From: an uncultured Candidatus Saccharibacteria bacterium
GTDB taxonomy: Bacteria > Patescibacteriota > Minisyncoccia > Phycocordibacterales > WO2-35-19
NCBI GenBank assembly: GCA_964601125.1
Contig: CAZRKB010000002.1
Span: 1-52,470 of the forward strand
Reading direction: 5' to 3'
Length of the DNA: 52,470 bases
Part shown: positions 1 to 18,695 of the stretch, piece by piece
Layout of the letters: every line of letters begins with the position of its first letter
Numbering within the stretch: the stretch's first letter is position 1
Made by a program: the position numbers and the translations under genes
Notes under the pieces: generated by a model
Database searches by the model: none
What the model saw: the letters and a program-made list of their open reading frames with translations, nothing else
Told to the model about the DNA's origin: nothing

Positions 1-61
1 CAGTTGGTAGAGCACCCCCATGGTAAGGGGGAGGTCATCGGTTCAATCCCGATCAACGGCT
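1..61 (+). tRNA. tRNA-Thr (anticodon GGT), 5' part cut by the window edge. CCA is encoded at 62-64.
   Basis: Anticodon stem ccccc/ggggg (15-19/27-31) with loop atGGTaa. T arm atcgg-ttcaatc-ccgat (37-53). Acceptor 3' strand caacggc (54-60), discriminator t61. Confidence 0.85.
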
Positions 62-1550
62 CCAAAATCAAACTTAGCGGTTTTTCAGAGGCGGAAATTC
101 GCGCGGCGCGGAGCGCCGCGTATGGAGAAATGGCGTTTCCGCGCGCTTCGCGCGCGTGGAGCGAGAGGTTCAATCCGAAAATTTTTTGGAGGAAGGATTT
201 TTTTAAAAGGAGGTCTTCCGATTCCGCGATTTTTCCGAGTGTCAAAGCGTCTGCAATCCAGTTGCGGACAGGTTCAACCCAAGCGGCAGGGGCTCGTTCA
301 AGACGGACGATATTTTCTTCAATCGTCCGGCGCTCGCTTGCAAGAGCGCGACGGCGTGACAAGTAATCCTCACGCTCCAAATCTTCAGCGACATATAAAT
401 CTGTCAGGCGCGATATTTTGCGAGAAATATCTTCGCACTTGTCACGCAGTTCTTGGACGGCTCCTGCCGCTGTTTGAGAGGCGCTGGCCGCCTCTTTTTC
501 AAGCAATGCGGAAAATGGAGAAATCCATTCTTGCGGCATAAAATATTCTGAAAGAAGCGTCGAGAGTTGCGAGTCCAAAAACTCGCTTCGCACCGGCGCT
601 TCTTTGCATTTGGCCGCTTTGTTTTTGCGAGTACAACGATAATATGTGTAGTGGTGAACGTTGCCATTTTTCTGATGTTTCTCTTTTACTTCAGCTGTAA
701 TACCCATACCGCAAAAACCACAGCGCAAAAGTCCGCAATACGGCGCCGGATCGGTTTTGATGGAAACTGGCCGGCCGCGTCCGCGCAAAACCGCATTGGC
801 TTTATCAAAAAGAGATTTTGAAATTAGAGGAGTGTGCGTACCTTCGTAAATTTCTCCGGCATATCGGAATTGACCGTAGTAAAATGGATTTTGCAAAATG
901 AAAGAGATGCGCGAAATATGAACTCGATGATTTCTTTTGGACATCACACCCGAATTTTCAAGAAAAAGTGTGAGCTGATCCAGCGTAAATTTTCCGCTCG
1001 AATATTTTTCAAATATTTCGCGCACAAGCGCGGCGTTTTTCTTGTGAACTTTTATAGTTTTTGTACTCGGATCATTTATATATCCAATTGGCGCAAGTGC
1101 TGGATAAATTCCTTGCCGCGCTTTTTGTCTTAAACCGCGAGCAGTATTTGCAGAAAGTTGGCGGATATATTCATTTGCCATGCCGAGCTCAACGGACATC
1201 ATGAGAACATTGTCATTGGGATAATGCGAGCGGTCGTGCGTTTGAATATGTCTGATTACATTTTGCTGGAGAAGCCATTGTATTTGTCCGCCGTCTACCG
1301 GATTTCTCGCCAAGCGATCAATTTTCCAACAGATAATTCCTTGTGCTTCGCCGCGCTGAATACGAGAAACCATTTCATTAAATATGGGACGGCCAGGCTG
1401 CTTGGCACTTTTCTTTTCAACGAACTCCTCAACAATTTCCAACTCGTTTCTGTGTGCGAGCACGCGAAGTTCGGCAAGCTGAGCTTCAATACTCAAAACT
1501 TGCTTGTCTTCAACATCAGTGCTTTTGCGAGCGTATAAAAAATATTTCAT
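1..1550 (-). CDS. Large serine recombinase (resolvase catalytic domain + recombinase domain + zinc beta-ribbon + coiled coil). The 3' end is open at the window edge. Not in the supplied ORF track.
   Basis: Manual minus-strand translation from ATG (1550-1548) gives MKYFLYARKSTDVEDKQVLSIEAQLAEL...GIICWKIDRLARNPVDG...LSANTARGLRQKARQG...YCGLLRCGFCGMGITAEVKEKHQKNGNVHHYTYYRCTRKNKAAKC... The frame has no stop down to position 1 (516 codons). The YxRxST catalytic-Ser motif and the CxxC..C zinc ribbon are typical of large serine recombinases. Confidence 0.9.
   Translation of the reverse strand, partial: MKYFLYARKSTDVEDKQVLSIEAQLAELRVLAHRNELEIVEEFVEKKSAKQPGRPIFNEMVSRIQRGEAQGIICWKIDRLARNPVDGGQIQWLLQQNVIRHIQTHDRSHYPNDNVLMMSVELGMANEYIRQLSANTARGLRQKARQGIYPALAPIGYINDPSTKTIKVHKKNAALVREIFEKYSSGKFTLDQLTLFLENSGVMSKRNHRVHISRISFILQNPFYYGQFRYAGEIYEGTHTPLISKSLFDKANAVLRGRGRPVSIKTDPAPYCGLLRCGFCGMGITAEVKEKHQKNGNVHHYTYYRCTRKNKAAKCKEAPVRSEFLDSQLSTLLSEYFMPQEWISPFSALLEKEAASASQTAAGAVQELRDKCEDISRKISRLTDLYVAEDLEREDYLSRRRALASERRTIEENIVRLERAPAAWVEPVRNWIADALTLGKIAESEDLLLKKSFLQKIFGLNLSLHAREARGNAISPYAALRAARISASEKPLSLILEPLIGIEPMTSPLPWGCSTN
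60..165. repeat. IR-A copy 1: 106-bp perfect inverted repeat, partner 1793-1898. Degenerate similarity continues to about 222.
   Basis: Base-by-base comparison shows 60-165 equals the reverse complement of 1793-1898. It covers the last acceptor base, discriminator and CCA of tRNA-Thr(GGT) and the 3' coding end of the recombinase. Confidence 0.95.
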
Positions 1551-1790
1551 ATAACTTAAATGGCCATCCTTGGTGCACTCAACCCAACAAGTTGGATTGT
1601 CCAAAGACGGCCATTAAAAAACTTGTTGGAAAGTTGAGTGCGCATCCATTATACATCAAAAGAAAATTTTGTTGCAAATATTTTTAGGGAGTTTTTGTGT
1701 GTGCGCACGGGTGGGCGGGGCAAACACACATAAATTTGCAGACCTCCTAAAAATCCTTCCTCCAAAAATTTCGGATCTGTATTTTCCTGA

Positions 1791-1943
1791 ACCTCGCTCC
1801 ACGCGCGCGAAGCGCGCGGAAACGCCATTTCTCCATACGCGGCGCTCCGCGCCGCGCGAATTTCCGCCTCTGAAAAACCGCTAAGTTTGATTTTGGAGTC
1901 TCTATTGTACTCCGCTCGAACCTATTTTTCCACTGAAATCTAG
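1791..1943 (+). pseudogene. Orphan 3' fragment of a serine recombinase gene (about 50 codons, ...HAREARGNAISPYAALRAARISASEKPLSLILESLLYSARTYFSTEI*).
   Basis: In the recombinase frame the IR-A copy 2 reading is preceded by an in-frame TGA (1788-1790) and ends at TAG 1941-1943. There is no N-terminal part upstream. Confidence 0.5.
1793..1898. repeat. IR-A copy 2 (inverted).
   Basis: Reverse complement is identical to 60-165. It abuts IR-B and overlaps it by GAG (1896-1898). Confidence 0.95.
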
Positions 1944-2130
1944 CGCACGCTCCGCGCGCGTGGTGGCTTTGTATTCTTGCGTACGCTCGACGCAAAGTGC
2001 TAACTCTGAAAGAAGAATTCCGCTTAGCTCGCTCCGCTCGCTCTGCCCCTCGCTTCCGTCCGCCCGAATTCCTCTCTTTCTTTTTGGCGGGGTGTTATGA
2101 AATGGATGAGGAGGCGGATGGAAGCGAGGG
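1896..2130. repeat. IR-B copy 1: 235-bp perfect inverted repeat, partner 12658-12892.
   Basis: Checked base by base against the reverse complement of 12658-12892. GC-rich. The inner end folds as an 18-bp hairpin (2047-2064 / 2113-2130). Confidence 0.95.
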
Positions 2131-2212
2131 TGATTTTTTGGGTGTTTGACAAATAAAAACGTGGTACAATAATTGTACAAACAAATGAATAGAGAATTGA
2201 AGAGTAAATTTG

Positions 2213-2232
2213 GAGAGAGAGAGAGAGAGAGA
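2213..2232. repeat. (GA)10 dinucleotide microsatellite.
   Basis: Direct reading: gagagagagagagagagaga. Confidence 0.95.
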
Positions 2233-2274
2233 GTAGAAGAGACCCTCCGAATTTTTGTATTAGACAAAGAAGCA

Positions 2275-2301
2275 AAAAGCACTGTTTTTGACAGTGCTTT
2301 T
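2275..2301. terminator. Symmetric hairpin flanked by A-run and T-run (aaaagcactgt-ttttg-acagtgctttt). Terminator-like in both directions.
   Basis: 11-bp perfect stem with a 5-nt loop and T/A tracts on both sides. Confidence 0.5.
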
Positions 2302-2321
2302 TGCGATTAAATTTTAATACC

Positions 2322-2627
2322 ATGGATACATTTTATATATCAATAATACTTGCAGGGTTTGGTGGAGGGGCAGTTAGAAATTTAGTCGGATTTGCCAAAC
2401 AATTTTCATTCACTAAACCAGTCTTTGATCTCAAATATTTTCTTATGACTATGCTCATTTCCGGAGCAGTCGGACTCATTGCTGCTATTGTCACCAAAGA
2501 GTTGGACATCAGTATTTTAGGAATTTCAGGCTTCACTCCAGCCATCGCCTTTTTGGTTGGTTACGCTGGAGGAGATTTGCTGGATAATCTTTACAAAATT
2601 ATTTTGAGAAAACCAGCTACTACCTAA
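2322..2627 (+). CDS. Small hypothetical membrane protein (about 3 TM, 101 aa).
   Basis: ORF 2301..2627. The first ATG is at 2322. Hydrophobic segments include ISIILAGFGGG, LMTMLISGAVGLIAAIV and AIAFLVGYAGG. Confidence 0.55.
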   Translation: MDTFYISIILAGFGGGAVRNLVGFAKQFSFTKPVFDLKYFLMTMLISGAVGLIAAIVTKELDISILGISGFTPAIAFLVGYAGGDLLDNLYKIILRKPATT

Positions 2628-2631
2628 CTTT

Positions 2632-5600
2632 ATGCCTTACTTTTTTAACAAAAAATTATTTCTGATTGCGATTGTAATTTGGGTTGGATTTGGGTTTTCA
2701 ATAAAAGCAAATGCAGCGACGGGGGATATCACTGCTGTTCGTATTGTATCTGGTGCGGAAGCTAGCCCGTGCAGTGCGGGTACTAATTGTAACGGTTGGG
2801 TAGCGGAAATTGATATTACCGGATTAAATACTGGAGGGACATATAATCTTGGTCTGGGTGCAAACAATAATCCATCAACTGCAAAAATTGTTTTTACTGT
2901 TACGTCCCCAGGATATGACACAAGTGGCAATGCGACGACAATAGCACGGACAATTTATGGTACGAAACAACTTCGTAAACCATATCCAAACCAGGCGACA
3001 ATGGACGAGGTTGAATCCGGTGGAACTCTTACCGTCCGTGTAGCACTTTCTGATTTTGTTTATTCTGGAGACTCGAGTATTACAGTAAATATCGGCTCTG
3101 GATTTTATACAAACGGAACAGCAAACAATGCTGTGACAGGATTGGCTGTTACAAATAATTCAACTTTAGGATACCCAAAAACCATAGGCCGCTGGGCGTG
3201 GCCCGGATATGAGAGGGTAACCGGTGACTTCTTACTCGAATCCACTGTATTTAACCACTTTGCCCGCAATGGCAAACCTGTGGCCGCAGTAAAATACACT
3301 TGCTCTGATCAACACTCAAATACCGTCACCCAAACCGTTAACAATATGACGGTTTCCACGAGAACTGGCGATGCTAACAAAGTTTTGGTTTACGCGGCAA
3401 CTATGCCTGTTTCAACTTTAACGCAAGGTGACATTATCACCTGCAACTTTACTGCTTATCCTTGGGTTGGTGACTCAACAGCTCTTGTTAATTCCGATTT
3501 AGTTGCTAATGGAGGTGATGGTATAGCTCAACCTAGCGAAGCGCTCGGACCTATTTATGAAGTCTTGGACAAATCAGGAACATACCCCAAAGGCTTTGCG
3601 GTCGTGGATGCAACGAACGGACAAGCGTCGGCGGCAGCCACCTGGGTGTACTCCTCACAGTCTGCTGCGGAATCGGCTTATGCGGGAGGTAACACGAACT
3701 CCTACAGGACCATCGGCTATGCCCTGCAGGCTCTCAAGGCATACAACAATGCTGATGCTACTTTTTCACATAATGATCCCGGAGGAGGAACTGTTCTTTT
3801 ACCGGAAGGATCTTATACATGGTCAAGTACCGGGCGATATGCCGACTCGGGCACGCAAAATATGTGGGTGACAGTCACAAAACTATCAACAGCATCTCGT
3901 GCAAATACAATCTTAGCTGCGGGTGGAGCGAGTAACTGGAATACGCAGAAAATTAAATTTACTGATTTAAATCTCGCTGGTTCTGCATCGGGCGTTCTTT
4001 CCAGCCGCACAGCATCAGACGTCTTGTGGCTACACAACAATACAATTAATTACACTGCTGACGGTGCTGTATATTCTTGGTTATTGGCATATGCAACTCA
4101 AAATGCGGTTACAAAGATAGGCCAAGGTTTTGATGTTTATGGAGGAGTTAAGGGCGCATATGCGTTAATACGTGGAAATACTGCGACAGCGCTTATTCCA
4201 TCTAGTGTCTATGCTATCTTGGGTAACACAAAAATTAAGCCTTCTCGGTTTTGTAATGATGCAACGTGTTACGGAGGAATGCAAACGTCAGAAAATTCAA
4301 TTATCGCATTCAATACCGTATATGGGCTAAGCTCAAGCATGTTGACAGGTCAACCAGCTAATACACAAACGCTTACGTGGGGAATAGCTATAGTACAAAA
4401 TGTATTTGAAAAAATAACCACGACTGACAACATTATGGGTATAGCCGCTGATAGTAGCACATCCAATCCAGCGAATAATGTAATTTTGTGGTACAACGAT
4501 TTTGTAGGTGAACGATTGAATATGGCGTATAACGATTTCACTGGACCAGGCACTCCGTTGATTCGAACCAATTGGTCATTCAAGTATAATTTGCTTGATA
4601 GATATTCCAATGTTTCTGATGTTGATAGCCATAATGGTAATCTTCCTGATGGAACTAGGATTGGTAATTGGCCGGTTAGGTATGGGGCAGGAACGGCCGG
4701 AAACATAATTGGAAGTTCACCGTTTTATGGAGAATTCCTTGGACTTTACACTTTAAATACGACGTTACCTGGCACGCTCGGAGGCTATGATTTTCATTAC
4801 ACAAATAATGCATCTTATACTGGCACAGCAGCGGGTAACGGAGATTATCATCCTACAGACTTATCACCATCTTTGAATCTTGTTTCGTCCGGATCTGCCT
4901 TGCTTCCATATGATATTGAAGGAACTGCCCGCAAAAACGACGGCACGGGCGCAGCCGGCGCATATGAATATGTCGCTGCTGGCGATACAACTTCTCCAAC
5001 AGTTTCCGATGGTACTATCACCACTTCATCTGTAACTTCAACTTCTCTCACCCTCTCTTGGACCAAAGCGACCGACGACACTTCCGCTCAAAACGCTCTA
5101 GTCTATCGAGTTTATAGATCATCTTCAAACAACATTGATTCCGTTGCTAATATTTATGCCAACGGCACTGCAGTTAACGCTTCCACAACCGATATAGCAA
5201 CTCTGGATGTTTCTTCTCTAGATCCTGCTACCACATATTACTTCAACATTGTCGTTGCTGACGAAGCTGGAAATTCTGCAGTATATACCACCAAATCACA
5301 AGTTACTCTCCAATCAGATTTAAGCGCTCCAACAGTGAACACATACAGCCCGACTGACGGTGCTTCTGATGTGGCTATAAGTTCAAACCTTGTTTTAACT
5401 TTCAACGAAAATGTGGCCAAAAGTACAGGCAACATTTATATCAAATTAACTAGCAATGATTCTACCGCTCAAACTATTGACGTTACTGACGCCACAGTCT
5501 CTGTGAGTAACGATACAGTCACTATCAATCCGCCTTCCAATTTGGATTACAGTACCGGATATTATGTCACTATAGACAACGGCGCTCTGGTAGATACCGC

Positions 5601-6684
5601 AACACCGACCCCCAACGCTTATGTTGGAATTTCAAACAGCACAACCTGGAATTTCACAACAGCATCCGCTCCATCATCCGTTAAAGCTATAACTTCTTTT
5701 GCTCTCAACGGCTTAACTCCAGCGGTTACAGGCACAATTAACGAAGGAGCTAAAACCGTCACCTTAACTGTTCCATACGGCACTTCTCTAACCAATCTCG
5801 TCCCCACTATTGTCTACACAGGCTCTTCCATTGATCCAGCTTCAGGTGCAGCTCACACGTTCACAGACGGAGTAGCCGAAACTTATACTGTCACTGCCGA
5901 AGATGCGACAACTCAAGCGTATCAAGTTACGGTTAATGTGACTCCTGCAAGCTCGGCAACAACCATCACTTCTTTTGATTTCGCATCCCCGGCTGTTACT
6001 GGCACAGTGGACAATACCGCTCACACCGTAGCTCTAACCGTCCCATACGGCACTGATGTTACTTATCTTACTCCGACCATTGTTTTGGCAACAGGAGCAA
6101 CTATTTCTCCAGATACTGGAGTAGCAACAGATTTCACTTCACCGGTTACTTACACAGTTACCGCCCAAGACGGAACAACGGAGCAAATATATACCGTGAC
6201 TGTCACTTCCGAAGCTGCTCCAGTCACTCCGTCAAACGGCCCCGTTTCTTCGGGTGGGGGCGGAGGGGGTCGCCGAAATATAATTACAACATCTATTCCA
6301 ACCGAAACTACTAATTACAGATTCCTAAACAATCTCTCATACGGATCGGAAGGAAATGATGTAACCGAACTTCAAAAGTTTTTGGTGTCGCAAGGATTTT
6401 TGACCTCAGACAACATCACCGGAGCATTCCGTGGAGAAACTCAAAAAGCTCTGCAAGCTTTCCAAAAAGCAAATGGTATTGTCACTTCCGGAACTCCGCA
6501 AACTACAGGATTTGGCAACTTCGGGCCGACAACTCGAGCAAAAGTTAATGCGATACTTGCCGGCTCAATCCCTTCGACAAGCTCAGGGCAAGCGGTCGCA
6601 GATCTGCAAGCTACTCTTCTTTCTTTGCAAAAACAACTGGTGACTCTGTTGACTCAACTGATACAGAAATTACAAGCTAACTAG
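2632..6684 (+). CDS. Giant secreted/surface protein (1350 aa). Contents: signal peptide, probable beta-helix region, FN3, Ig-like repeats, one C-terminal peptidoglycan-binding (PG_binding_1-like) domain and a terminal coiled coil.
   Basis: N-terminal signal FLIAIVIWVGFGFSIKANA. FN3-like LTLSWTKATDD...VYRVYRS. Duplicated ITSF..VTGT....TV.LTVPYGT modules. LSYGSEGNDVTELQKFLVSQGFL...ALQAFQKANGI matches the PG-binding motif. Confidence 0.8.
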   Translation: MPYFFNKKLFLIAIVIWVGFGFSIKANAATGDITAVRIVSGAEASPCSAGTNCNGWVAEIDITGLNTGGTYNLGLGANNNPSTAKIVFTVTSPGYDTSGNATTIARTIYGTKQLRKPYPNQATMDEVESGGTLTVRVALSDFVYSGDSSITVNIGSGFYTNGTANNAVTGLAVTNNSTLGYPKTIGRWAWPGYERVTGDFLLESTVFNHFARNGKPVAAVKYTCSDQHSNTVTQTVNNMTVSTRTGDANKVLVYAATMPVSTLTQGDIITCNFTAYPWVGDSTALVNSDLVANGGDGIAQPSEALGPIYEVLDKSGTYPKGFAVVDATNGQASAAATWVYSSQSAAESAYAGGNTNSYRTIGYALQALKAYNNADATFSHNDPGGGTVLLPEGSYTWSSTGRYADSGTQNMWVTVTKLSTASRANTILAAGGASNWNTQKIKFTDLNLAGSASGVLSSRTASDVLWLHNNTINYTADGAVYSWLLAYATQNAVTKIGQGFDVYGGVKGAYALIRGNTATALIPSSVYAILGNTKIKPSRFCNDATCYGGMQTSENSIIAFNTVYGLSSSMLTGQPANTQTLTWGIAIVQNVFEKITTTDNIMGIAADSSTSNPANNVILWYNDFVGERLNMAYNDFTGPGTPLIRTNWSFKYNLLDRYSNVSDVDSHNGNLPDGTRIGNWPVRYGAGTAGNIIGSSPFYGEFLGLYTLNTTLPGTLGGYDFHYTNNASYTGTAAGNGDYHPTDLSPSLNLVSSGSALLPYDIEGTARKNDGTGAAGAYEYVAAGDTTSPTVSDGTITTSSVTSTSLTLSWTKATDDTSAQNALVYRVYRSSSNNIDSVANIYANGTAVNASTTDIATLDVSSLDPATTYYFNIVVADEAGNSAVYTTKSQVTLQSDLSAPTVNTYSPTDGASDVAISSNLVLTFNENVAKSTGNIYIKLTSNDSTAQTIDVTDATVSVSNDTVTINPPSNLDYSTGYYVTIDNGALVDTATPTPNAYVGISNSTTWNFTTASAPSSVKAITSFALNGLTPAVTGTINEGAKTVTLTVPYGTSLTNLVPTIVYTGSSIDPASGAAHTFTDGVAETYTVTAEDATTQAYQVTVNVTPASSATTITSFDFASPAVTGTVDNTAHTVALTVPYGTDVTYLTPTIVLATGATISPDTGVATDFTSPVTYTVTAQDGTTEQIYTVTVTSEAAPVTPSNGPVSSGGGGGGRRNIITTSIPTETTNYRFLNNLSYGSEGNDVTELQKFLVSQGFLTSDNITGAFRGETQKALQAFQKANGIVTSGTPQTTGFGNFGPTTRAKVNAILAGSIPSTSSGQAVADLQATLLSLQKQLVTLLTQLIQKLQAN

Positions 6685-6689
6685 AAAAT

Positions 6690-9600
6690 ATGGAAATATT
6701 GCAACAAATCCTTTCTACTTTAACTGCTCTGGTTATGGCTCTTTCCGCCCAGATTGTTTCTCTGCCTCCAATCACACAATTGGCTCAAGTCTCCGCTCCG
6801 AGTTCGGGACTTGTCGGCTACTGGAATTTTGATGAAGGATCGGGAACAGTCGCAAACGATTCAAGTGGAAATGGAAATACCGGAACAATTAACGGAGCAA
6901 CTTGGACAACAGGAAAGGTGGGGAGTGGGGCTTTGAGTTTTGATGGAACAAGCAGTTATGTTTCTCTCGGCTCGTCGGCATCTCTCTCAGGTATAACTTA
7001 TCCGTATTCAATTTCTTTGTGGTTTAAGAGTTCCACCAACCAGTCTAAAATTTTATTTAGCTTTGACACAAATGATGCGAGCAGTGATCAGGCGATTCTT
7101 CTAGCCAATTCTTCCGGGGGCAATAATCAGTGGATTATTGCTGGCAACAAATATGCAAACGTTTATCCAACTATAAATAATCTTTCTGATGGACAATGGC
7201 ATAATGTCGTCGTTGAAAGAGATTCATCGAATAATGCTTTAATTTATGTTGATGGGAATAATTTTTCTACCAATAATACTTCTGCTTACTCTGTAAGCAA
7301 TATGGTAATCGGCGGGAGAGGTGCTGGAACATATCCGTTTAACGGATCAATTGATGAAATTCGTATTTATAACCGTACTCTTTCTGCATCTGAAGTCTCA
7401 AATATTTATAACGAGGGTGGAAGTTCAGTAATGCCTCCGGCACCAGAACCTGAGCCAACTCCGGCCCCTACCCCAACCCCGACACCCATAAACGGATCTT
7501 GCGGTTCTTCTGTTAACACTTGTACAACAGGAACTTTATCCGACACTGCCGATACTTCCACTAATTATCTCTGGATTTGCCAAGGTAGCAATGGGGGCAC
7601 AAATGTTTCTTGTTCTCTCCCGATTTCTATCACGCCGCCTCCTTCAAACGGAACTTATACGGTAAAAAAGGACGGTACTGGCAATTTCACTACTATCCAA
7701 GCTTGCGCCGATGCTGTAACCGCGGGAGGAACCTGTCTAGTCTATGCTGGTACTTACAATGAACGCGTATCTACTAAATCTGGCGGCACAAGTGACAGTA
7801 ATCGTATATTTTTCAAAACCCAAGGCACGGTGACTATGCAAGGTTTTGATATAAAAAATCCTTACATAACAATAGAAGGTTTTGATATGACCGGATACTC
7901 GGTAAATTACACGGGTTATGTTGATGTCTGGCAAAATGGAGATTACGTCAATGTTTTAAACAACACAATTCGTGATGTTGATGGGGGAGCAAAGGTAAAT
8001 GGAGTTAAATTTGAGCGTGTCAGTGGCGACTCCGCAAATAACGGTATTGTCCGCGGAAACACCATGACTCACTTAAACTCTCAATATTTTTCTCTTCATG
8101 GTTCAAACCACCTGATTGAACAAAACAGAATGACCGAAGCTCGTCAGTGGGATCCGTTTATGGTTTTTGGCACCAATCATATTATCCGTCATAACATTTT
8201 TTTGAATGCTGGCACTGCCGGCGGCGGTAATCATCCAGATTATTTCCAGACTTGGGGTGCCAGTGGAGAGCCCGCTCAGAATATTTTATTTGAAGACAAC
8301 TGGATGCAAGATCTGCCGGAACAGCTCTGCCAGCTCAATTCTTCTGTTGATGGAGTGGGGGCTTTGGTTACCAACGTCAGAGATTTTACCTTCCGCCGGA
8401 ATGTGGTCGTAAACGTACCGGCAAATTGTAACGTAGATATTCCGGGCACCAGGTGGGAGAATAATACTTTTTCCCGGATGTCCTATAACATGACCGGCTT
8501 TATAATGGGAGGTTCGTTAACCAGAGGCGATGGCTCTTCGGCAGTATTTCGCAATAATGTGTTTTTGGAAGGCGGAAGCAATCCAACTGCCAGCAATAGT
8601 TCCTCTGGTTTTTATAGCGTAGACGGCTTCTTATTCACTCGCGAAGTCATTGCCCAATATGTCACAGGGGAAGGCTTTGCCTCCTGCGCCAGTCCCGGTT
8701 GCCCCATAGCCAATGGTATCACAAACGATATGATTGCTAGCGGATATATTGACGGTGCCTATAACGGGCACATTCTTCCCGCAGCACGGGCGCTTACGAG
8801 CGGAGATGCCATGAATTTAAATGCTTCATACGCAGCATACAAACCGGCGCTTTGGACAAAGCTTCAAGAATCTATTACTTACGATAATACTTTAAAGTCT
8901 ACTTTCTCCGCTGATTACAATTATGTAGCCGGAGCAACGTCCTCAGGTTATCCGGCTAAGAAAAGCAGCGGCTGCGTAGCCGGAGCCACATACACCAGCG
9001 GGAATTTCTGCGAACCGCATGGTATTAATGGCGGTGATCCAAAATTGCAAAATGTAAGCAACCCTATCGGACCAGATGGTATACCCTTTACTTCAGATGA
9101 TGGATTGAGGCCTTTATCTGGGTCACCCCTATGTGGCACTGGAGAAGGAGGGGCTAGTATAGGAGCCTATTCTTGCTCGTCTTCTTCGCTGGGAGCTCCA
9201 ACCATTTCCAATTTTTATGCAACCCCGTCATCAATCACTTCGGGCAATTCTACTATATTGTCTTGGTCAGTGTCAGGTGCAAGTTCGATTTCTATAGATA
9301 ACAATGTTGGTAGTGTCACCAATCTAACATCAAAAACAGTTTCTCCGAACGTAACTACTACATACACTATTACAGCGACAAATAGTGCTGGATCGGTTAC
9401 GAGATCGATTACTGTATCAGTTTCTTCTGCTTCAATAAGTGATTTAGTTTTGAGACTAAATTTCGAAGGATACACTCCTTCTTCCGGCATAGTTTCTGAT
9501 AAGTCGGGTACTGGCAATGATGGCGCTTGCAATTATAGTTTAGGACAGTGCCCTGTAATTGGTACTGGTCCAGATAATAGTACTGCTGCCAGATTTTTTG

Positions 9601-11324
9601 GTGCTTATCCAGACGCGGCAAATGATGGTAACTATGTCTCTGTAAGCAAAACCAGCAGTCTCTCCAACTTGACGAGCGGAACCGTTTCAGTTTGGGCACG
9701 CTATGCCAACATATCTCCAGACAGAGTAGAATTTATTTTAGACAGCTACCAAAAGACTGGAGAAAATCCTGACCATAGCGATATTGGCACTCCTGGTACT
9801 TGGTATATCGGCAGAAATTATTATCAAAACAACAGCTTGTGGGCTTTCAACAATTCAGGTAGCCGCGTCCAACTCATCTCTTTTCCGGACTCTTCGGTAT
9901 ATACCCAACAACAGTCAGGCACTGCCGGCTGGCATCAGTATGCCTTTACGTGGGACGGCACCAACGTAAAAGGATACTATGATGGCGCTTTAATTAGTAC
10001 AACTCCGCAAACAAATTTCTCGTATTTCACTCTAGGAAATTATCTGGCCCTTGGCGCAAGTGGTCACAACTCGCTACCAGAAACCGGTACTCAAAAATAT
10101 CCAAATCATGGATTTATAAATGGTTATCTAGACGAAATCCGTATTTACAATCGAGCTCTTTCGTCAGCTGAAATTTCTTCCCTATACTCTGCTCCAGCAA
10201 ATAATACTGCGCCAACAACTCAACCGATTACTCCTGAACCAACTCTGCCTGTAATCTCCAACCTCGTCGGCTCTAACACCACATCTAACTCAACCAAAAT
10301 TTCTTGGGATACTAATATTGCAACAAACGGCCAGGTCTTTTACGGCAAAACTTCAAGTTACGGACTCTCTTCTGTTTTAGTAGACAATTCGCCCAAGACA
10401 ACTTCACATTCTGTCACTCTCTCCAATCTTTCTGCGGCAACAGCATATCATTTCAAAGTCACTTCTATCGATGCTTCAAGCAATAGCATTTCTTCATCAG
10501 ATTTTACTTTCACTACTCAAGCCAGTGCTCCACAATCCGTATCATCAAATACTACCGCTTCTGGCGCTGGGAGTAGTGGCTCTTCTTCAAATTCAATAAC
10601 CACCCCTACCGCTACCACCCCTGCTCCAATTGTCTACATTCCTCCTGCACTTCCAGCCGCTGTTTCCACACAAATCTCCGGACCAACTCTTACCCGCAAC
10701 CTCCTGCCTTCAAATAAAGGCGAAGAAGTCAAAATCCTACAGAATTTCTTAATTTCTCAAGGACTACTCTCAGCTGATTCTAACACCGGATACTTTGGTC
10801 CAGCTACCCAAAAAGCGGTGCAAGATTTCCAAAAAGCTCGAGGTTTAGTCTCTTCAGGAGATTTTTGGACAACCGGTTATGGAATGGTTGGTCCAGCTAC
10901 CAGAGCAATGATCAACAGTATAACTGGATCTGCAACCGTTAATACTTCAACAACCAATACGACTGCAACTGTTCCCCTCGTTCGCAATCTTTCCCGTGGT
11001 TCCGAAGGATCCGATGTAACTATTTTGCAAAATTTCTTGATCTCACAGGGTTACTTAGCTCCAGGCAATGCTATCGGTTATTTCGGCCCTTTAACCGAAA
11101 CGGCAATCAAAAAATTCCAAGCTAGCCAGAACATTGTTTCCGCAGGTACTCCTCAAACCACTGGCTACGGAAATGTTGGGTCAATGACTAGAGCTAAAAT
11201 CAATGCTTTTCTTGGTGCAAACAATCTCCCAATCGGGACAAGTAATACTACTCTTCAAGCTCAAATACAGGCTTTACAGCAGCAAGTGCAAGAACTGATG
11301 CTTAAGTTGCAGAAAGCGCAATAA
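6690..11324 (+). CDS. Giant surface protein (1544 aa). Contents: two LamG/concanavalin-like domains, a right-handed beta-helix, Ig-like and FN3 domains, two PG-binding domains and a terminal coiled coil.
   Basis: GLVGYWNFDEGSG...IDEIRIYNRTLSASEV and LDEIRIYNRALSSAEI (Laminin_G_3 signatures). PbH1-like repeats NNTIRD/RGNTMT/EQNRMT/RHNIFL. Two EGxxVxxLQNFLISQG..GYFGP motifs. Confidence 0.85.
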   Translation: MEILQQILSTLTALVMALSAQIVSLPPITQLAQVSAPSSGLVGYWNFDEGSGTVANDSSGNGNTGTINGATWTTGKVGSGALSFDGTSSYVSLGSSASLSGITYPYSISLWFKSSTNQSKILFSFDTNDASSDQAILLANSSGGNNQWIIAGNKYANVYPTINNLSDGQWHNVVVERDSSNNALIYVDGNNFSTNNTSAYSVSNMVIGGRGAGTYPFNGSIDEIRIYNRTLSASEVSNIYNEGGSSVMPPAPEPEPTPAPTPTPTPINGSCGSSVNTCTTGTLSDTADTSTNYLWICQGSNGGTNVSCSLPISITPPPSNGTYTVKKDGTGNFTTIQACADAVTAGGTCLVYAGTYNERVSTKSGGTSDSNRIFFKTQGTVTMQGFDIKNPYITIEGFDMTGYSVNYTGYVDVWQNGDYVNVLNNTIRDVDGGAKVNGVKFERVSGDSANNGIVRGNTMTHLNSQYFSLHGSNHLIEQNRMTEARQWDPFMVFGTNHIIRHNIFLNAGTAGGGNHPDYFQTWGASGEPAQNILFEDNWMQDLPEQLCQLNSSVDGVGALVTNVRDFTFRRNVVVNVPANCNVDIPGTRWENNTFSRMSYNMTGFIMGGSLTRGDGSSAVFRNNVFLEGGSNPTASNSSSGFYSVDGFLFTREVIAQYVTGEGFASCASPGCPIANGITNDMIASGYIDGAYNGHILPAARALTSGDAMNLNASYAAYKPALWTKLQESITYDNTLKSTFSADYNYVAGATSSGYPAKKSSGCVAGATYTSGNFCEPHGINGGDPKLQNVSNPIGPDGIPFTSDDGLRPLSGSPLCGTGEGGASIGAYSCSSSSLGAPTISNFYATPSSITSGNSTILSWSVSGASSISIDNNVGSVTNLTSKTVSPNVTTTYTITATNSAGSVTRSITVSVSSASISDLVLRLNFEGYTPSSGIVSDKSGTGNDGACNYSLGQCPVIGTGPDNSTAARFFGAYPDAANDGNYVSVSKTSSLSNLTSGTVSVWARYANISPDRVEFILDSYQKTGENPDHSDIGTPGTWYIGRNYYQNNSLWAFNNSGSRVQLISFPDSSVYTQQQSGTAGWHQYAFTWDGTNVKGYYDGALISTTPQTNFSYFTLGNYLALGASGHNSLPETGTQKYPNHGFINGYLDEIRIYNRALSSAEISSLYSAPANNTAPTTQPITPEPTLPVISNLVGSNTTSNSTKISWDTNIATNGQVFYGKTSSYGLSSVLVDNSPKTTSHSVTLSNLSAATAYHFKVTSIDASSNSISSSDFTFTTQASAPQSVSSNTTASGAGSSGSSSNSITTPTATTPAPIVYIPPALPAAVSTQISGPTLTRNLLPSNKGEEVKILQNFLISQGLLSADSNTGYFGPATQKAVQDFQKARGLVSSGDFWTTGYGMVGPATRAMINSITGSATVNTSTTNTTATVPLVRNLSRGSEGSDVTILQNFLISQGYLAPGNAIGYFGPLTETAIKKFQASQNIVSAGTPQTTGYGNVGSMTRAKINAFLGANNLPIGTSNTTLQAQIQALQQQVQELMLKLQKAQ

Positions 11325-11342
11325 CAAGCAGCATCTAAAAAT

Positions 11343-12059
11343 ATGCCAGACGAAAATACACAACCCGCTCCTGAACCAGTCCAAACCGAATCAACCCCGA
11401 CACAACCGGAAACTCCAATTTCCGAACCGAACCCCGTAAAGCTCGATTCTCTCGCCACGGGGCAAGACCCTGCTTCAGTGAGCTCGCAAGGGCCCATGGA
11501 ACCTGCCCCTGTTCAGCCAGCACCCTCTGACACTTCCGAAATGCCCCCTGGTCCAGTAGAAGCCCCATCAAGCCCCGAAGAAGCCACTCCAGTCAAAGAT
11601 GCTAATTCCGCAAATGAGCCGTTCCCCGTAAAAGACGAGGTGCCCTCGTCTCACGGGGCAAGCGAACCAGCTCCTGCCCCTGAGCCGTTAGAAAAGCCTG
11701 GGATTACGATTGAAAGACACGGAACAGACACGACAATAACAGAAGATATGCAGCCAAAATCCGAAACGGCTCAGTTGCCACCAAATGAGCCGATCGATCT
11801 AGCGGAAGAAATAAAGACAAAACAAAGAGAAGAAAATCTAAAACTTGCCAACGAAACCAGACAAGAAAAGAAACGAGAGAAGATAGATAAAATTTTGGAA
11901 ATGTTTTCTGAGCAAACAGAAATTACAAACGACGAAGTAGAAAAACTCCTTCATGTCTCTGACGCAACCGCGACAAGATATTTGGAACAGCTAGAAAAAG
12001 AAAACAAAATCAGACAAGTTGGTAAAACTGGTAAAGGCGTAAAATACGAAAGAATCTAA
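11343..12059 (+). CDS. Protein with a Pro/Glu/Ser-rich disordered N-terminus and a C-terminal winged helix-turn-helix.
   Basis: C-terminus ITNDEVEKLLHVSDATATRYLEQLEKENKIRQVGKTGKGVKYERI resembles a DeoR/MarR-type wHTH. Confidence 0.65.
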   Translation: MPDENTQPAPEPVQTESTPTQPETPISEPNPVKLDSLATGQDPASVSSQGPMEPAPVQPAPSDTSEMPPGPVEAPSSPEEATPVKDANSANEPFPVKDEVPSSHGASEPAPAPEPLEKPGITIERHGTDTTITEDMQPKSETAQLPPNEPIDLAEEIKTKQREENLKLANETRQEKKREKIDKILEMFSEQTEITNDEVEKLLHVSDATATRYLEQLEKENKIRQVGKTGKGVKYERI

Positions 12060-12089
12060 TTTTGAATTTGATTTTTTGTTTTTCTTTTT

Positions 12090-12560
12090 TGGGAGCTCTC
12101 CGTACACGCGAATGGGTCGGGTGGGTCAAGTGTACATGTCTGAGTCCTCGGGCATTTCCGCTATGGCAGGATCGGATATGAGCGCCGTCGCCAGCCGAAG
12201 CGATGCGGGAAAAAAGCGAAAGCGACACTGTGAACACAAGAATGAAATGGAGGAGTGGGGTTGTGCGAGGGTGGACTCCGAAGGCACAAACAATGTGTCG
12301 CAAAACTCTACAAAAAGATGAATAAAACAAAGCACTACAAAATCTAAACCATCTCTGCGAGGAGGAGCCCGAAGCTGGGGAGAGGAACCTTCCTCTCCCC
12401 AAAAGGAGCGGTGCCCGAGCCAGCGCCGAGCACGGCGCGGTGGCGAGGAAAAGCACCGCACGAAGCAATCTAGGCGCGAGTAGCCATAGCGGAAATGCCC
12501 GAGGACGGATGTCCGAGGGTGGAGCTTCCAGCCTGCCAAAAATATGAGTATGCCAGAGGC
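12090..12560. ncRNA. Candidate large structured RNA of unknown class. The region is GC-rich and non-coding-looking, and lies inside the element next to IR-B copy 2.
   Basis: 24-bp long-range helix 12144-12167 / 12483-12506. Hairpins 12377-12400 (10 bp) and 12419-12444 (10 bp with a 2-nt bulge), enclosed by 12408-12414 / 12453-12459. Helix 12102-12107 / 12130-12135. A hand count of 12401-12460 gives 42/60 G+C. Only Arg/Ser/Pro-rich, mutually overlapping ORFs are present. Confidence 0.4.
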
Positions 12561-12657
12561 ACCATTTCTTTTTTCTTCTGTCTTTTCCCAAACGGCTCAT
12601 TTCCTGCCATTTGAGCCGTTTGGAATTCCGCTTGCTTCTTCCTTAGAAGAATCCTGC

Positions 12658-12892
12658 CCCTCGCTTCCATCCGCCTCCTCATCCATTTCATAACACCCCG
12701 CCAAAAAGAAAGAGAGGAATTCGGGCGGACGGAAGCGAGGGGCAGAGCGAGCGGAGCGAGCTAAGCGGAATTCTTCTTTCAGAGTTAGCACTTTGCGTCG
12801 AGCGTACGCAAGAATACAAAGCCACCACGCGCGCGGAGCGTGCGCTAGATTTCAGTGGAAAAATAGGTTCGAGCGGAGTACAATAGAGACTC
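12658..12892. repeat. IR-B copy 2 (inverted). It ends 14 nt upstream of tRNA-Thr(CGT).
   Basis: Reverse complement is identical to 1896-2130. Confidence 0.95.
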
Positions 12893-12906
12893 AAGAAAGA
12901 AATTGT

Positions 12907-12979
12907 GCCGATGTAGCTCAATTGGTAGAGCAATGGTATCGTAAACCATAGGTTGTCGGTTCAATCCCGACCATCGGCT
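12907..12979 (+). tRNA. tRNA-Thr (anticodon CGT).
   Basis: Cloverleaf by hand: acceptor gccgatg/catcggc, D arm gctc-aattggta-gagc, anticodon stem atggt/accat with loop atCGTaa, T arm gtcgg-ttcaatc-ccgac, discriminator t. Confidence 0.9.
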
Positions 12980-12980
12980 C

Positions 12981-18622: not shown

Positions 18623-18624
18623 AG

Positions 18625-18695
18625 CTGCCGGACCTGGATTCGAACCAAGATAAACGGATTCAGAGTCCGTTGTCCTACCATTAGACGATCCGGCA
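18625..18695 (-). tRNA. tRNA-Gln (anticodon CTG).
   Basis: Minus-strand read: tgccgga-tc-gtctaatggtaggac-a-acgga-ctCTGaa-tccgt-ttat-cttgg-ttcgaat-ccagg-tccggca-g. The U1-A72 pair is typical of tRNA-Gln. Confidence 0.85.

Follow-up and report, generated by a model that had tools for sequence, protein, structure and literature searches.

A genomic island of 12.8 kb occupies positions 60 to 12892 of contig CAZRKB010000002.1 from an uncultured Candidatus Saccharibacteria bacterium (the whole stretch analyzed, 52,470 nucleotides [nt], is called the window), where it lies between the genes for tRNA-Thr(GGT) and tRNA-Thr(CGT). In all probability it is an island of the Candidate Phyla Radiation (CPR) that was integrated by its own large serine recombinase (LSR), carries its attachment site attP inside the LSR gene, and holds a second, inverted attP upstream of that gene. 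At the sequence level, a state-dependent C terminus of this LSR is confirmed: the same protein body is found with a tail encoded by the element or with one read from the antisense of a tRNA gene. An original prediction made from the first 1.9 kb recognized the left end of this island; it was incomplete in that the other end lies at 12890, and the supposed inverted copy of the gene end is a complete attP.

The recombinase

The minus-strand frame beginning with the ATG at 1550 runs to the window edge without a stop and ends with ...SEKPLSLILE followed by PLIGIEPMTSPLPWGCSTN; as had been predicted, it stays open to position 1 and reads into the antisense of tRNA-Thr(GGT) after the core codon GAG. 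The suggestion that it is open-ended there was not borne out, as the next codon is TGA. This stop straddles the window edge, with T-G at positions 2 and 1 and the third base opposite the T that precedes CAGTTGG in the tRNA D-loop; because the base at this point of the tRNA-Thr D-loop is T, the codon is TGA and the protein has 516 amino acids (aa). Dozens of homologues have exactly 516 aa and end in ...CSTN, and at locus L001 the called LSR gene terminates within the tRNA. Comparisons between loci draw on a survey of one genome per species (185,579 species genomes, 224 loci), from which 80 loci were retrieved; all named loci among these 80 belong to Patescibacteria.

Three Pfam models match the product above their cut-offs: Resolvase (PF00239; residues 4-147, 80.5 bits against a cut-off of 23.3), the Recombinase domain (PF07508; residues 171-258, 56.4 bits), and Zn_ribbon_recom (PF13408; residues 272-328, 32.9 bits). 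The open reading frame (ORF) product is therefore, by every sequence criterion tested, the large serine recombinase that had been proposed. The motif YARKS(10)TD is invariant in 32 homologues. The zinc-ribbon cysteines C277, C280, and C306 are invariant, with C272 nearly so. In the AlphaFold model of the homologue P0083 (mean pLDDT 79.5 for the body, pTM 0.40), helices 340-389 and 393-436 form a predicted coiled-coil region, and residues ~445-490 make up a small folded C-terminal subdomain (pLDDT 64-88). The closest solved relatives, SPbeta SprA/YokA (best PDB E-value 2e-11) and A118 integrase, are distant. With 516 aa, LSR domains, and no helix-turn-helix (HTH), the protein does not resemble the small serine invertases Hin and Gin.

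Layout and junctions of the island

The order along the window is tRNA(GGT)–CTC–[rcP–LSR (reverse)–P*]–GAG–[Y–cargo–rcY]–CTC–spacer–tRNA(CGT), where rc marks a reverse complement. The parts are as follows.

1-64, plus strand: 3' part of tRNA-Thr(GGT), cut by the window edge; attB-derived arm of attL (Rfam match)
3-1550, minus strand: LSR ORF (translation; PF00239, PF07508, PF13408; homologues of exactly 516 aa)
60-62, plus strand: attL crossover core CTC (tRNA positions 72-74), complement of the codon GAG for E497
60-223, minus strand: P arm, LSR 3' coding end and element-derived arm of attL (repeat comparison; two GC hairpins)
1733-1898, plus strand: P* arm, inverted second copy of the LSR 3' end (1793-1898 identical to 60-165)
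1896-1898, plus strand: core GAG of the internal attP (P*-core-Y; junction comparison)
1899-1943, plus strand: Y tail, 14 codons SLLYSARTYFSTEI and TAG at 1941-1943, the predicted native LSR C terminus when attP is intact
1899-2130, plus strand: Y arm, left inverted repeat of the cargo module and P' half of attP (245-nt repeat)
2131-12657, plus strand: cargo (ORF list, Pfam, promoter scan)
12658-12889, minus strand: right Y arm (reverse complement of 1899-2130), element arm of attR (repeat comparison)
12890-12892, plus strand: attR core CTC, in ...acaatagaga-ctc-aagaaagaaattgt (comparable distal junctions in L021, L027, L063, L076, and L085)
12893-12980, plus strand: native 14-nt spacer (attB right arm), then the unoccupied tRNA-Thr(CGT) at 12907-12980 (ARAGORN, Rfam)

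The tRNA at the left edge matches Rfam RF00005 at 1-61 on the plus strand (40.2 bits, model positions 13-71, 5' end cut off). Its anticodon loop reads GGT, hence tRNA-Thr, and the closest locus, L006, has an intact tRNA-Thr(ggt) at the corresponding position. The antisense of this gene supplies the last 19 LSR codons in the integrated state.

Two inverted repeats divide the island. The first pairs 60-165 with 1793-1898 (106 nt, 100% complementary, far beyond chance), extends more weakly between 180-223 and 1733-1771, and bounds the LSR module; the second pairs 1886-2130 with 12658-12902 (245 nt, 98%) and bounds the 10.5-kb surface-protein cargo module. A motif search with the sequence beyond the right repeat located its reverse complement at 12861-12874. 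Between the two modules lies the internal attP, P*-core-Y, a complete and inverted second attP at 1733-2130. The inverted copy of the LSR 3' segment at 1791-1943 is thus real, preceded by an in-frame TGA (1788-1790) as originally described, and the idea that it is a random duplication missing from related elements fails, as about 50 of 66 related loci have it.

The three junctions read caacgg-CTC-caaaatc (left), gattttg-GAG-tctcta (internal), and atagaga-CTC-aagaaag (right). At 60, 1896, and 12890, attL, the internal attP, and attR share only three bases, CTC/GAG, which supports the earlier placement of the crossover core inside the ORF; the crossover dinucleotide within it may be CT or TC, either being compatible. 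The distal X-Y junctions of L021, L027, L063, L076, and L085, the loci with a long enough flank, likewise have just 3 to 4 nt in common with the other two. On the tRNA side, the P arm supplies positions 72-76 (CTCCA) and so regenerates the tRNA, and ARAGORN calls intact tRNAs at occupied sites. The outer junctions are, as far as sequence comparison can tell, those that canonical LSR integration predicts, with attP as P-core-Y and attB as tRNA 3' end-core-spacer.

Gene order around the island agrees with this assignment. The GGT and CGT Thr tRNA genes lie near each other in L021, L025, L042, L045, and L047. In L021 the order is tRNA(GGT)-tRNA(CGT)-[element]-RF-FtsE-FtsX, and in the window it is tRNA(GGT)-[element]-tRNA(CGT)-galU-RF-FtsE-FtsX. 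Five metagenome contigs with the identical 33-nt tRNA 3' end, from more distant organisms, are all unoccupied at this site (5/5). The island is, judged by this synteny, an insertion into a conserved backbone at a tRNA 3' end. The window's three further tRNA genes (Thr-CGT 12907-12980, Gln-CTG 18624-18695, and Phe-GAA 41659-41733) are unoccupied; tRNA-Thr(CGT) ends in ..GGCTCA without an encoded CCA, and the galU ORF begins directly after it.

Two alternative C-terminal tails

Beyond the core of the internal attP, the LSR frame would continue into the Y arm for 14 codons. An alternative tail after GAG with its stop at 1941-1943 had been predicted, and both stand; the tail is 14 aa and not 16 aa long. 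Among the 120 best homologues, the majority end in tRNA antisense and 6 to 8 end in xLLxxARTYF... Clusters of at least 90% identity hold both tails; in them the segment encoded by the P arm is identical, and the switch falls exactly after ..LILE.

P0042 and P0193: Y-type tail CLYDFTRTYFIKNS; tRNA-antisense tail PMVGIEPTTCGLRYRRSTN
P0045 and P0194: Y-type tail SLLKHARTYFSKNS; tRNA-antisense tail PLDGIEPSTSSLPMTCSTN
P0069 and P0195: Y-type tail SLLNHARTYFSTHPNP; tRNA-antisense tail PPARIELATFSLRVRCSTN
P0083 and P0129, P0125, P0123: Y-type tail SLLYSARTYFSEHSN; three distinct tRNA-antisense tails

The proposal that integrated and attP-intact forms encode different tails is thereby confirmed on natural LSRs at least 90% identical, with the switch after the core codon. 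The comparison of homologue tails suggested together with it shows, moreover, that the second tail is conserved in the manner of a coding sequence. All 34 unique Y flanks read [S/Y/C/T]-L-L-x-x-A-R-T-[Y/H]-F-[S/A]-[K/Q]-[N/H] in the LSR frame; 33 of them keep this frame open over 13 or more codons, whereas the other two frames contain stops in 23/34 and 30/34. Leu2, Arg7, Thr8, and Phe10 never change although their codons vary synonymously, and synonymous changes such as CGA/AGA and TTG/TTA/CTC leave Leu, Arg, Tyr, and Phe in place. Conservation is codon-periodic (information content of 1.39/1.65/1.17 at the three codon positions, the third being the most variable), and pN/pS is 0.43 in the LSR frame compared with 0.72 and 1.46 in the others. 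Although 33 of the 34 Y flanks now adjoin P* and not the full gene, their conservation is of the coding type, indicating that the joined P-core-Y configuration must recur in the life of the element.

The motif GAACC stands at +16 in tRNA arms and at +20 in Y arms; this 4-nt offset recalls the attB/attP zinc-ribbon motif shift and is offered as a lead only. Dyad symmetry between the P and Y arms, considered for half-site typing, was not convincing, the GAACC offset being the sole regularity.

P and P* arms

Within a locus the P and P* arms are nearly identical near the core, and they diverge between loci, a pattern that indicates probable concerted evolution. The distal P* arm has an insertion of ~10 nt and a stop codon. 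Many loci retain this insertion (consensus TTGTATTTTC, ~115 nt from the core), and only in P*, so P* is apparently more than a decaying duplicate. In the window (1772-1792) it divides a CGGAT/TGAACC motif, in the P* copy only.

Both arms (60-165 and 1793-1898; 36 loci) contain two GC hairpins of the GCGAAGC/GCTTCGC mini-hairpin type, one on each strand. In P-arm hairpin 2, GCGGCGC-TYC-GCGCCGC, ~45-61 nt from the core, pairing is kept via double changes at six pairs across 36 loci. The core-proximal P-arm hairpin shows covariation between loci; the invariant Leu480 is encoded in its loop. A role of the hairpins as intrinsic terminators was discarded because no U-tract follows 3' of them. P0074, P0079, and P0088 have bodies 96 to 98% identical but differ in the ~25-aa C-terminal segment that the P arm encodes and in the tRNA to which they are fused; P arms thus appear to be swapped as modules between elements.

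Recurrence across Patescibacteria

Inverted repeats at least 80 nt long that place one arm at the 3' end of the LSR gene were found at 66 loci; among the 44 loci having more than 2.5 kb of upstream sequence, 37 have the repeat. At 45 of the 66, the arm at the gene 3' end borders on a tRNA or tRNA-like sequence in antisense, with the conserved Y flank next to the upstream arm. In five further loci Y adjoins the upstream arm and the script left the gene-end flank unclassified; it is tRNA-like in three of the five. Close relatives occupy Thr tRNAs with GGT, CGT, or TGT anticodons, and relatives at ~55% identity occupy Asn, Arg, Phe, Glu, Gln, Ala, or Tyr tRNAs; the element boundary always falls between tRNA positions 71 and 72.

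The cargo of relatives includes GmrSD, AbiEii, AAA_15/21 ATPases, BglII and NgoPII restriction-modification systems, a KAP NTPase, and a UvrD-type helicase, a content that, by annotation, is typical of islands. No description of this LSR-island family was found in the literature searched, a statement about that literature only.

In L005 (7491-7770, minus strand), and also in L092 and L095, the anticodon of tRNA-Thr(GGT) is immediately followed by an insert of ~205 nt. Its match to Rfam Intron_gpI reaches only 20.6 bits (E 0.009), suggestive of a divergent group-I-like tRNA intron in CPR bacteria. The recurrent LSR tail ..GIEPxTSSFAYTS.. arises because it is the antisense of this insert.

Probable use of both attP copies and inversion of modules

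Three loci that are 99.5 to 99.9% identical contain the same helicase and LSR module between different outer flanks.

L090: left flank Y0, right flank tRNA-CGT
L003: left flank tRNA-CGT, right flank Y1
L002: left flank Y0, right flank Y1

A simple flip of the LSR module between L090 and L003 was rejected because the far flank changes from Y0 to Y1, and alternative attP use fits better. Since a flip cannot change the far flank, recombination of attP with attB via either attP of an L002-type arrangement explains L090 and L003. In L002 and L004, the module bounded by Y arms is cleanly inverted, with the crossover within the first 115 identical nt. From these comparisons we infer two active attP copies and modules that can flip, either site-specifically or via RecA on the 100- to 250-bp repeats.

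Of the two forms, the tRNA-fused one is far commoner than the alternative, at about 45 to 2. The two attP sites are identical over more than 100 nt and should not give such a ratio, which is the best indirect hint that the tRNA-fused form is the more stable one; tail loss, head-on tRNA transcription, and a cis preference are possible causes.

L002 is a compound island in which LSR and cargo modules alternate, each with its own inverted repeats. At 6308-7900 it has a second LSR gene, 45% identical to that of the window and uncalled in the source annotation, which reads into tRNA-Thr(GGT) antisense. In L013 both LSR-module arms adjoin tRNA-like sequence, and in L005 the orientation of the RF-FtsE-FtsX backbone with respect to tRNA(GGT) is the reverse of that in the window; the two arrangements are a hint of chromosomal inversions by an internal attP acting on other tRNA genes.

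Proposed mechanism and alternative explanations

The following course of events is proposed. The free circle, whose existence we infer, would contain two inverted attP sites within an inverted repeat of ~350 bp. In the one that lies within the LSR gene, the P arm would code for residues ~445-497, the core for E497, and the P' (Y) arm for the native last 14 residues and the stop. The LSR would insert the island at the 3' end of tRNA-Thr(GGT), separating this gene from tRNA-Thr(CGT), by strand exchange within the 3-nt core CTC (tRNA positions 72-74, codon E497); the empty attB site would read ...GATCAACGG-CTC-AAGAAAGAAATTGT-GCCGATG. Either attP could serve in the reaction with attB. Integration via the gene-proximal site would give the common form, in which the LSR is fused to the tRNA and its conserved tail is replaced by 19 residues of tRNA antisense ending at a TGA in the D-loop antisense; in the rare form the P* arm would adjoin the tRNA, and the LSR would keep its native tail. 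The inverted repeats would also permit module flipping. As the most speculative step, loss of the native tail and convergent tRNA transcription may damp the LSR and stabilize the integrated form.

Several observations weigh against this account of the island. Neither an excised circle nor an empty site in a close relative of the source strain was found: the empty attB pattern tRNA(GGT)-N(0-30)-tRNA(CGT) gave zero matches, and an exact-protein look-up of the neighboring galU led only to a 1.7-kb contig. The LSR family is absent from the viral contigs of IMG/VR, and no candidate for a recombination directionality factor (RDF) was identified. Equivalent attP copies predict about equal numbers of the two forms, against an observed ratio of ~45:2. 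In principle, mis-scaffolding across the 100- to 250-nt repeats could produce the orientation differences of L002/L004 and L090/L003, although the differing outer flanks of the L090/L003/L002 trio argue against it. As for the tail, the Y flank contains the tRNA T-loop-like GAACC with a nearly invariant ACC, and constraint on the DNA site, not selection on the peptide, may account for part of its conservation. The AlphaFold model of P0083 is uninformative there (pLDDT <50), and the tRNA-derived tails are arbitrary, yet the ORFs of those copies are intact; taken together, low model confidence and arbitrary tails mean that the LSR tail may be dispensable.

That the tail exchange has a regulatory role, as a directionality or state sensor, is doubtful in our estimate. 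In its full version, which we consider slightly less likely still, the exchange would be a built-in state sensor: xLLxxARTYF would be needed for full activity, for interaction with a partner or RDF, or for controlled turnover, and the island would be bistable. Gene-proximal integration would strip the tail, set the gene head-on to tRNA transcription, and lock the island, whereas integration via the inverted attP, or a flip of the LSR module, would keep or restore the native enzyme. The internal attP of the live form could then attack other tRNA genes and rearrange CPR chromosomes, or exchange cassettes in the manner of recombinase-mediated cassette exchange. We give clearly more credence, close to an even chance, to a swap that is real in DNA and functionally neutral, in which the ORF/attP overlap reflects CPR compactness, residues after E497 are dispensable, and Y is conserved as an attP half-site whose GAACC mimics the tRNA T-loop. 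The low model confidence of the tail agrees with this, as do the near-invariant ACC/GAACC of the Y flank, with GAACC in the tRNA arm too, and the wholly different antisense tails (Thr, Asn, Arg, Glu, and others) on intact ORFs that dominate the databases. A neutral swap does not, however, account for codon-periodic conservation with residues kept through synonymous changes, for a frame open over at least 13 codons in 33/34 flanks while other frames are full of stops, or for a pN/pS of 0.43 solely in the recombinase frame, and the excess of the fused form requires an asymmetry between otherwise identical attP sites.

It is improbable that the system is primarily one of DNA inversion, shufflon- or Hin-like, with the LSR as invertase and the tRNA adjacency incidental. 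Long inverted repeats do border both modules, the Y-arm-bounded module is inverted in L002 versus L004, the LSR module is oppositely oriented in L090 and L003, and many contigs break at the repeats. The outer junctions, however, resemble canonical attL/attR, with unique DNA on one side and a 3-nt core; the island is inserted in a syntenic backbone, at different tRNAs across genomes, and the same enzyme is fused to different tRNAs. The change of far flank from Y0 to Y1 in the L090/L003/L002 trio is no simple flip, the promoter-like site of the cargo lies inside its module, so that flipping would not switch expression, and the enzyme is a 516-aa LSR without Fis/enhancer-type features, though an enhancer was not searched for. 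That the repeats arose as artefacts of assembly or amplification, through chimeric fold-back at the end of a contig, is extremely improbable. The window does begin within a tRNA beside a repeat, and many related contigs end near repeats; against this, the layout recurs with locus-specific arms in ~60 independent assemblies from differing projects and assemblers, the P* arm has its own conserved insertion, and the Y arms border real genes. L005 has the layout within CP129473, a record of 692 kb, which shows that the repeats are not assembly artefacts.

Two further origins were rejected. For an insertion sequence (IS)-like transposon with long terminal repeats, the IS607 model gives 17.8 bits against a cut-off of 110, and the flank past the upstream arm is conserved Y element sequence and not target DNA; in addition, the cores at the ends of the LSR module are inverted, so that conservative serine recombination could presumably only invert it. 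A prophage origin was set aside as no relatives occur in IMG/VR.

Upstream region of the recombinase and cargo genes

Three features lie between the P* arm and the LSR start codon.

1556-1641, minus strand: structured 5' leader of the LSR mRNA with nested dyads (inverted repeats; fold z-score -3.1; partly kept in L005 and L073)
1648-1677, minus strand: sigma-70-like promoter of the LSR, TTGCAA, 18-nt spacer, TATAAT (consensus scan 10/12, a consensus match only)
1700-1726, minus strand: GC box TTGCCCCGCCCACCCGTGCGCAC (reverse complement), between the P* arm and the LSR promoter (upstream alignment)

The dyads at 1556-1641, which lie between the promoter-like site and the start codon, had been proposed as operator or accessory sites. 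They are present, and the segment folds better than 200 of 200 shuffles (z -3.1) into two alternative structures. One of these is kept in part, and in no relatives but L005 and L073. The dyads therefore look like a structured mRNA leader shared with just these two, and not like an operator used throughout the family. The GC box is kept in 21/21 aligned loci of the upstream-region alignment.

The cargo module has the following genes.

2301-2627: holin-like small membrane protein
2632-6684: giant surface protein of 1350 aa
6690-11324: giant surface protein of 1544 aa
11343-12059: winged HTH protein
12010-12600, minus strand: ORF without assigned function

The giant proteins (2632-11324) contain PG_binding_1, Laminin_G_3, Big_5, fn3, and DUF5018 domains (Pfam) and are candidates for a secreted or surface-located host-attachment function in this episymbiont. 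A strong promoter-like site at 2146-2173 (TTGACA, 16-nt spacer, AATAAT; 11/12 consensus) is followed ~100 nt downstream by a terminator-like hairpin of 15 bp (2272-2304) that is bidirectional and closely precedes the first cargo gene; a short leader or a small RNA may be encoded at 2146-2304. Phase variation of the surface-protein cargo through promoter inversion was rejected because the best promoter-like site, 2146-2173, sits inside the cargo module.

Relation to known systems

The window LSR shares with phiC31, Bxb1, A118, SPbeta SprA, SCCmec Ccr, and XisF the order Resolvase, Recombinase, Zn-ribbon, a predicted long coiled coil, attL/attR with just a 3- to 4-nt core in common and no long direct repeats, and island- or defence-type cargo. 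It is only distantly related to these LSRs and differs from them in targeting the extreme tRNA 3' end, in having attP within the integrase ORF, and in the second inverted attP as a standard part. Targeting of tRNA genes is typical of tyrosine integrases and unusual for LSRs. The tRNA 3'-end target, attP in the integrase ORF, the standard second inverted attP, and the spread across Patescibacteria are, on the loci compared, the unusual features of the family.

Tyrosine integrases of the SSV1 (fusellovirus) type have attP within the int gene, and integration into a tRNA gene partitions the ORF. In both systems the encoded protein depends on the free or integrated state; however, SSV1 int is split into two large fragments and inactivated, whereas the window LSR, a serine enzyme, exchanges its last 14 residues only and retains every catalytic and DNA-binding domain. 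The closest demonstrated precedent for a state sensor is the integration-dependent immunity that Broussard and colleagues are said to have described in 2013 in the mycobacteriophages BPs, Brujita, and Charlie, where removal of an ssrA-like degradation tag by integration reportedly acts as the switch. There, too, attP lies inside a regulatory gene and integration alters the C terminus, but the split gene is a repressor served by a tyrosine integrase, and in the island it is the recombinase's own gene. No recognizable degron was seen in the Y tail xLLxxARTYFSKN.

The yeast 2-micron plasmid (FLP/FRT) and pSM19035 (beta recombinase/six) are circles with recombination sites inside long inverted repeats. 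The predicted circle of the island would be of the same build, two unique segments parted by a ~350-bp inverted repeat with a site for its own recombinase in each copy, and both isomers or orientations are seen in nature. Unlike these autonomous plasmids, which use inversion for copy-number control or replication, the island is chromosomal and has no recognizable replication genes, and recombination of attP with attP is not known from LSRs. The invertases Hin, Gin, Cin, and Min also have their gene in or beside a segment bounded by inverted repeats, with alternative C-terminal ends joined to a constant part. They are proteins of ~190 aa with a C-terminal HTH, act at 26-bp sites with a Fis-dependent enhancer, and switch flagellin or tail-fibre genes, whereas in the island the enzyme is an LSR whose own end is the variable one.

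Directionality of serine integrases is normally set by a separate factor. If the integration-rewritten C terminus acts as proposed, it would provide serine integrases with a self-contained means of sensing the state of the element; such a mechanism is so far known as demonstrated only for a phage repressor with tyrosine integrases. The paired inverted attP sites, predictable tRNA attB, and very short cores may be of practical interest for genome engineering, for instance, for cassette exchange. For the episymbionts themselves, the island family offers a handle on how organisms with small genomes gain surface proteins and defence genes, and it may explain why their assemblies frequently break at tRNA genes.

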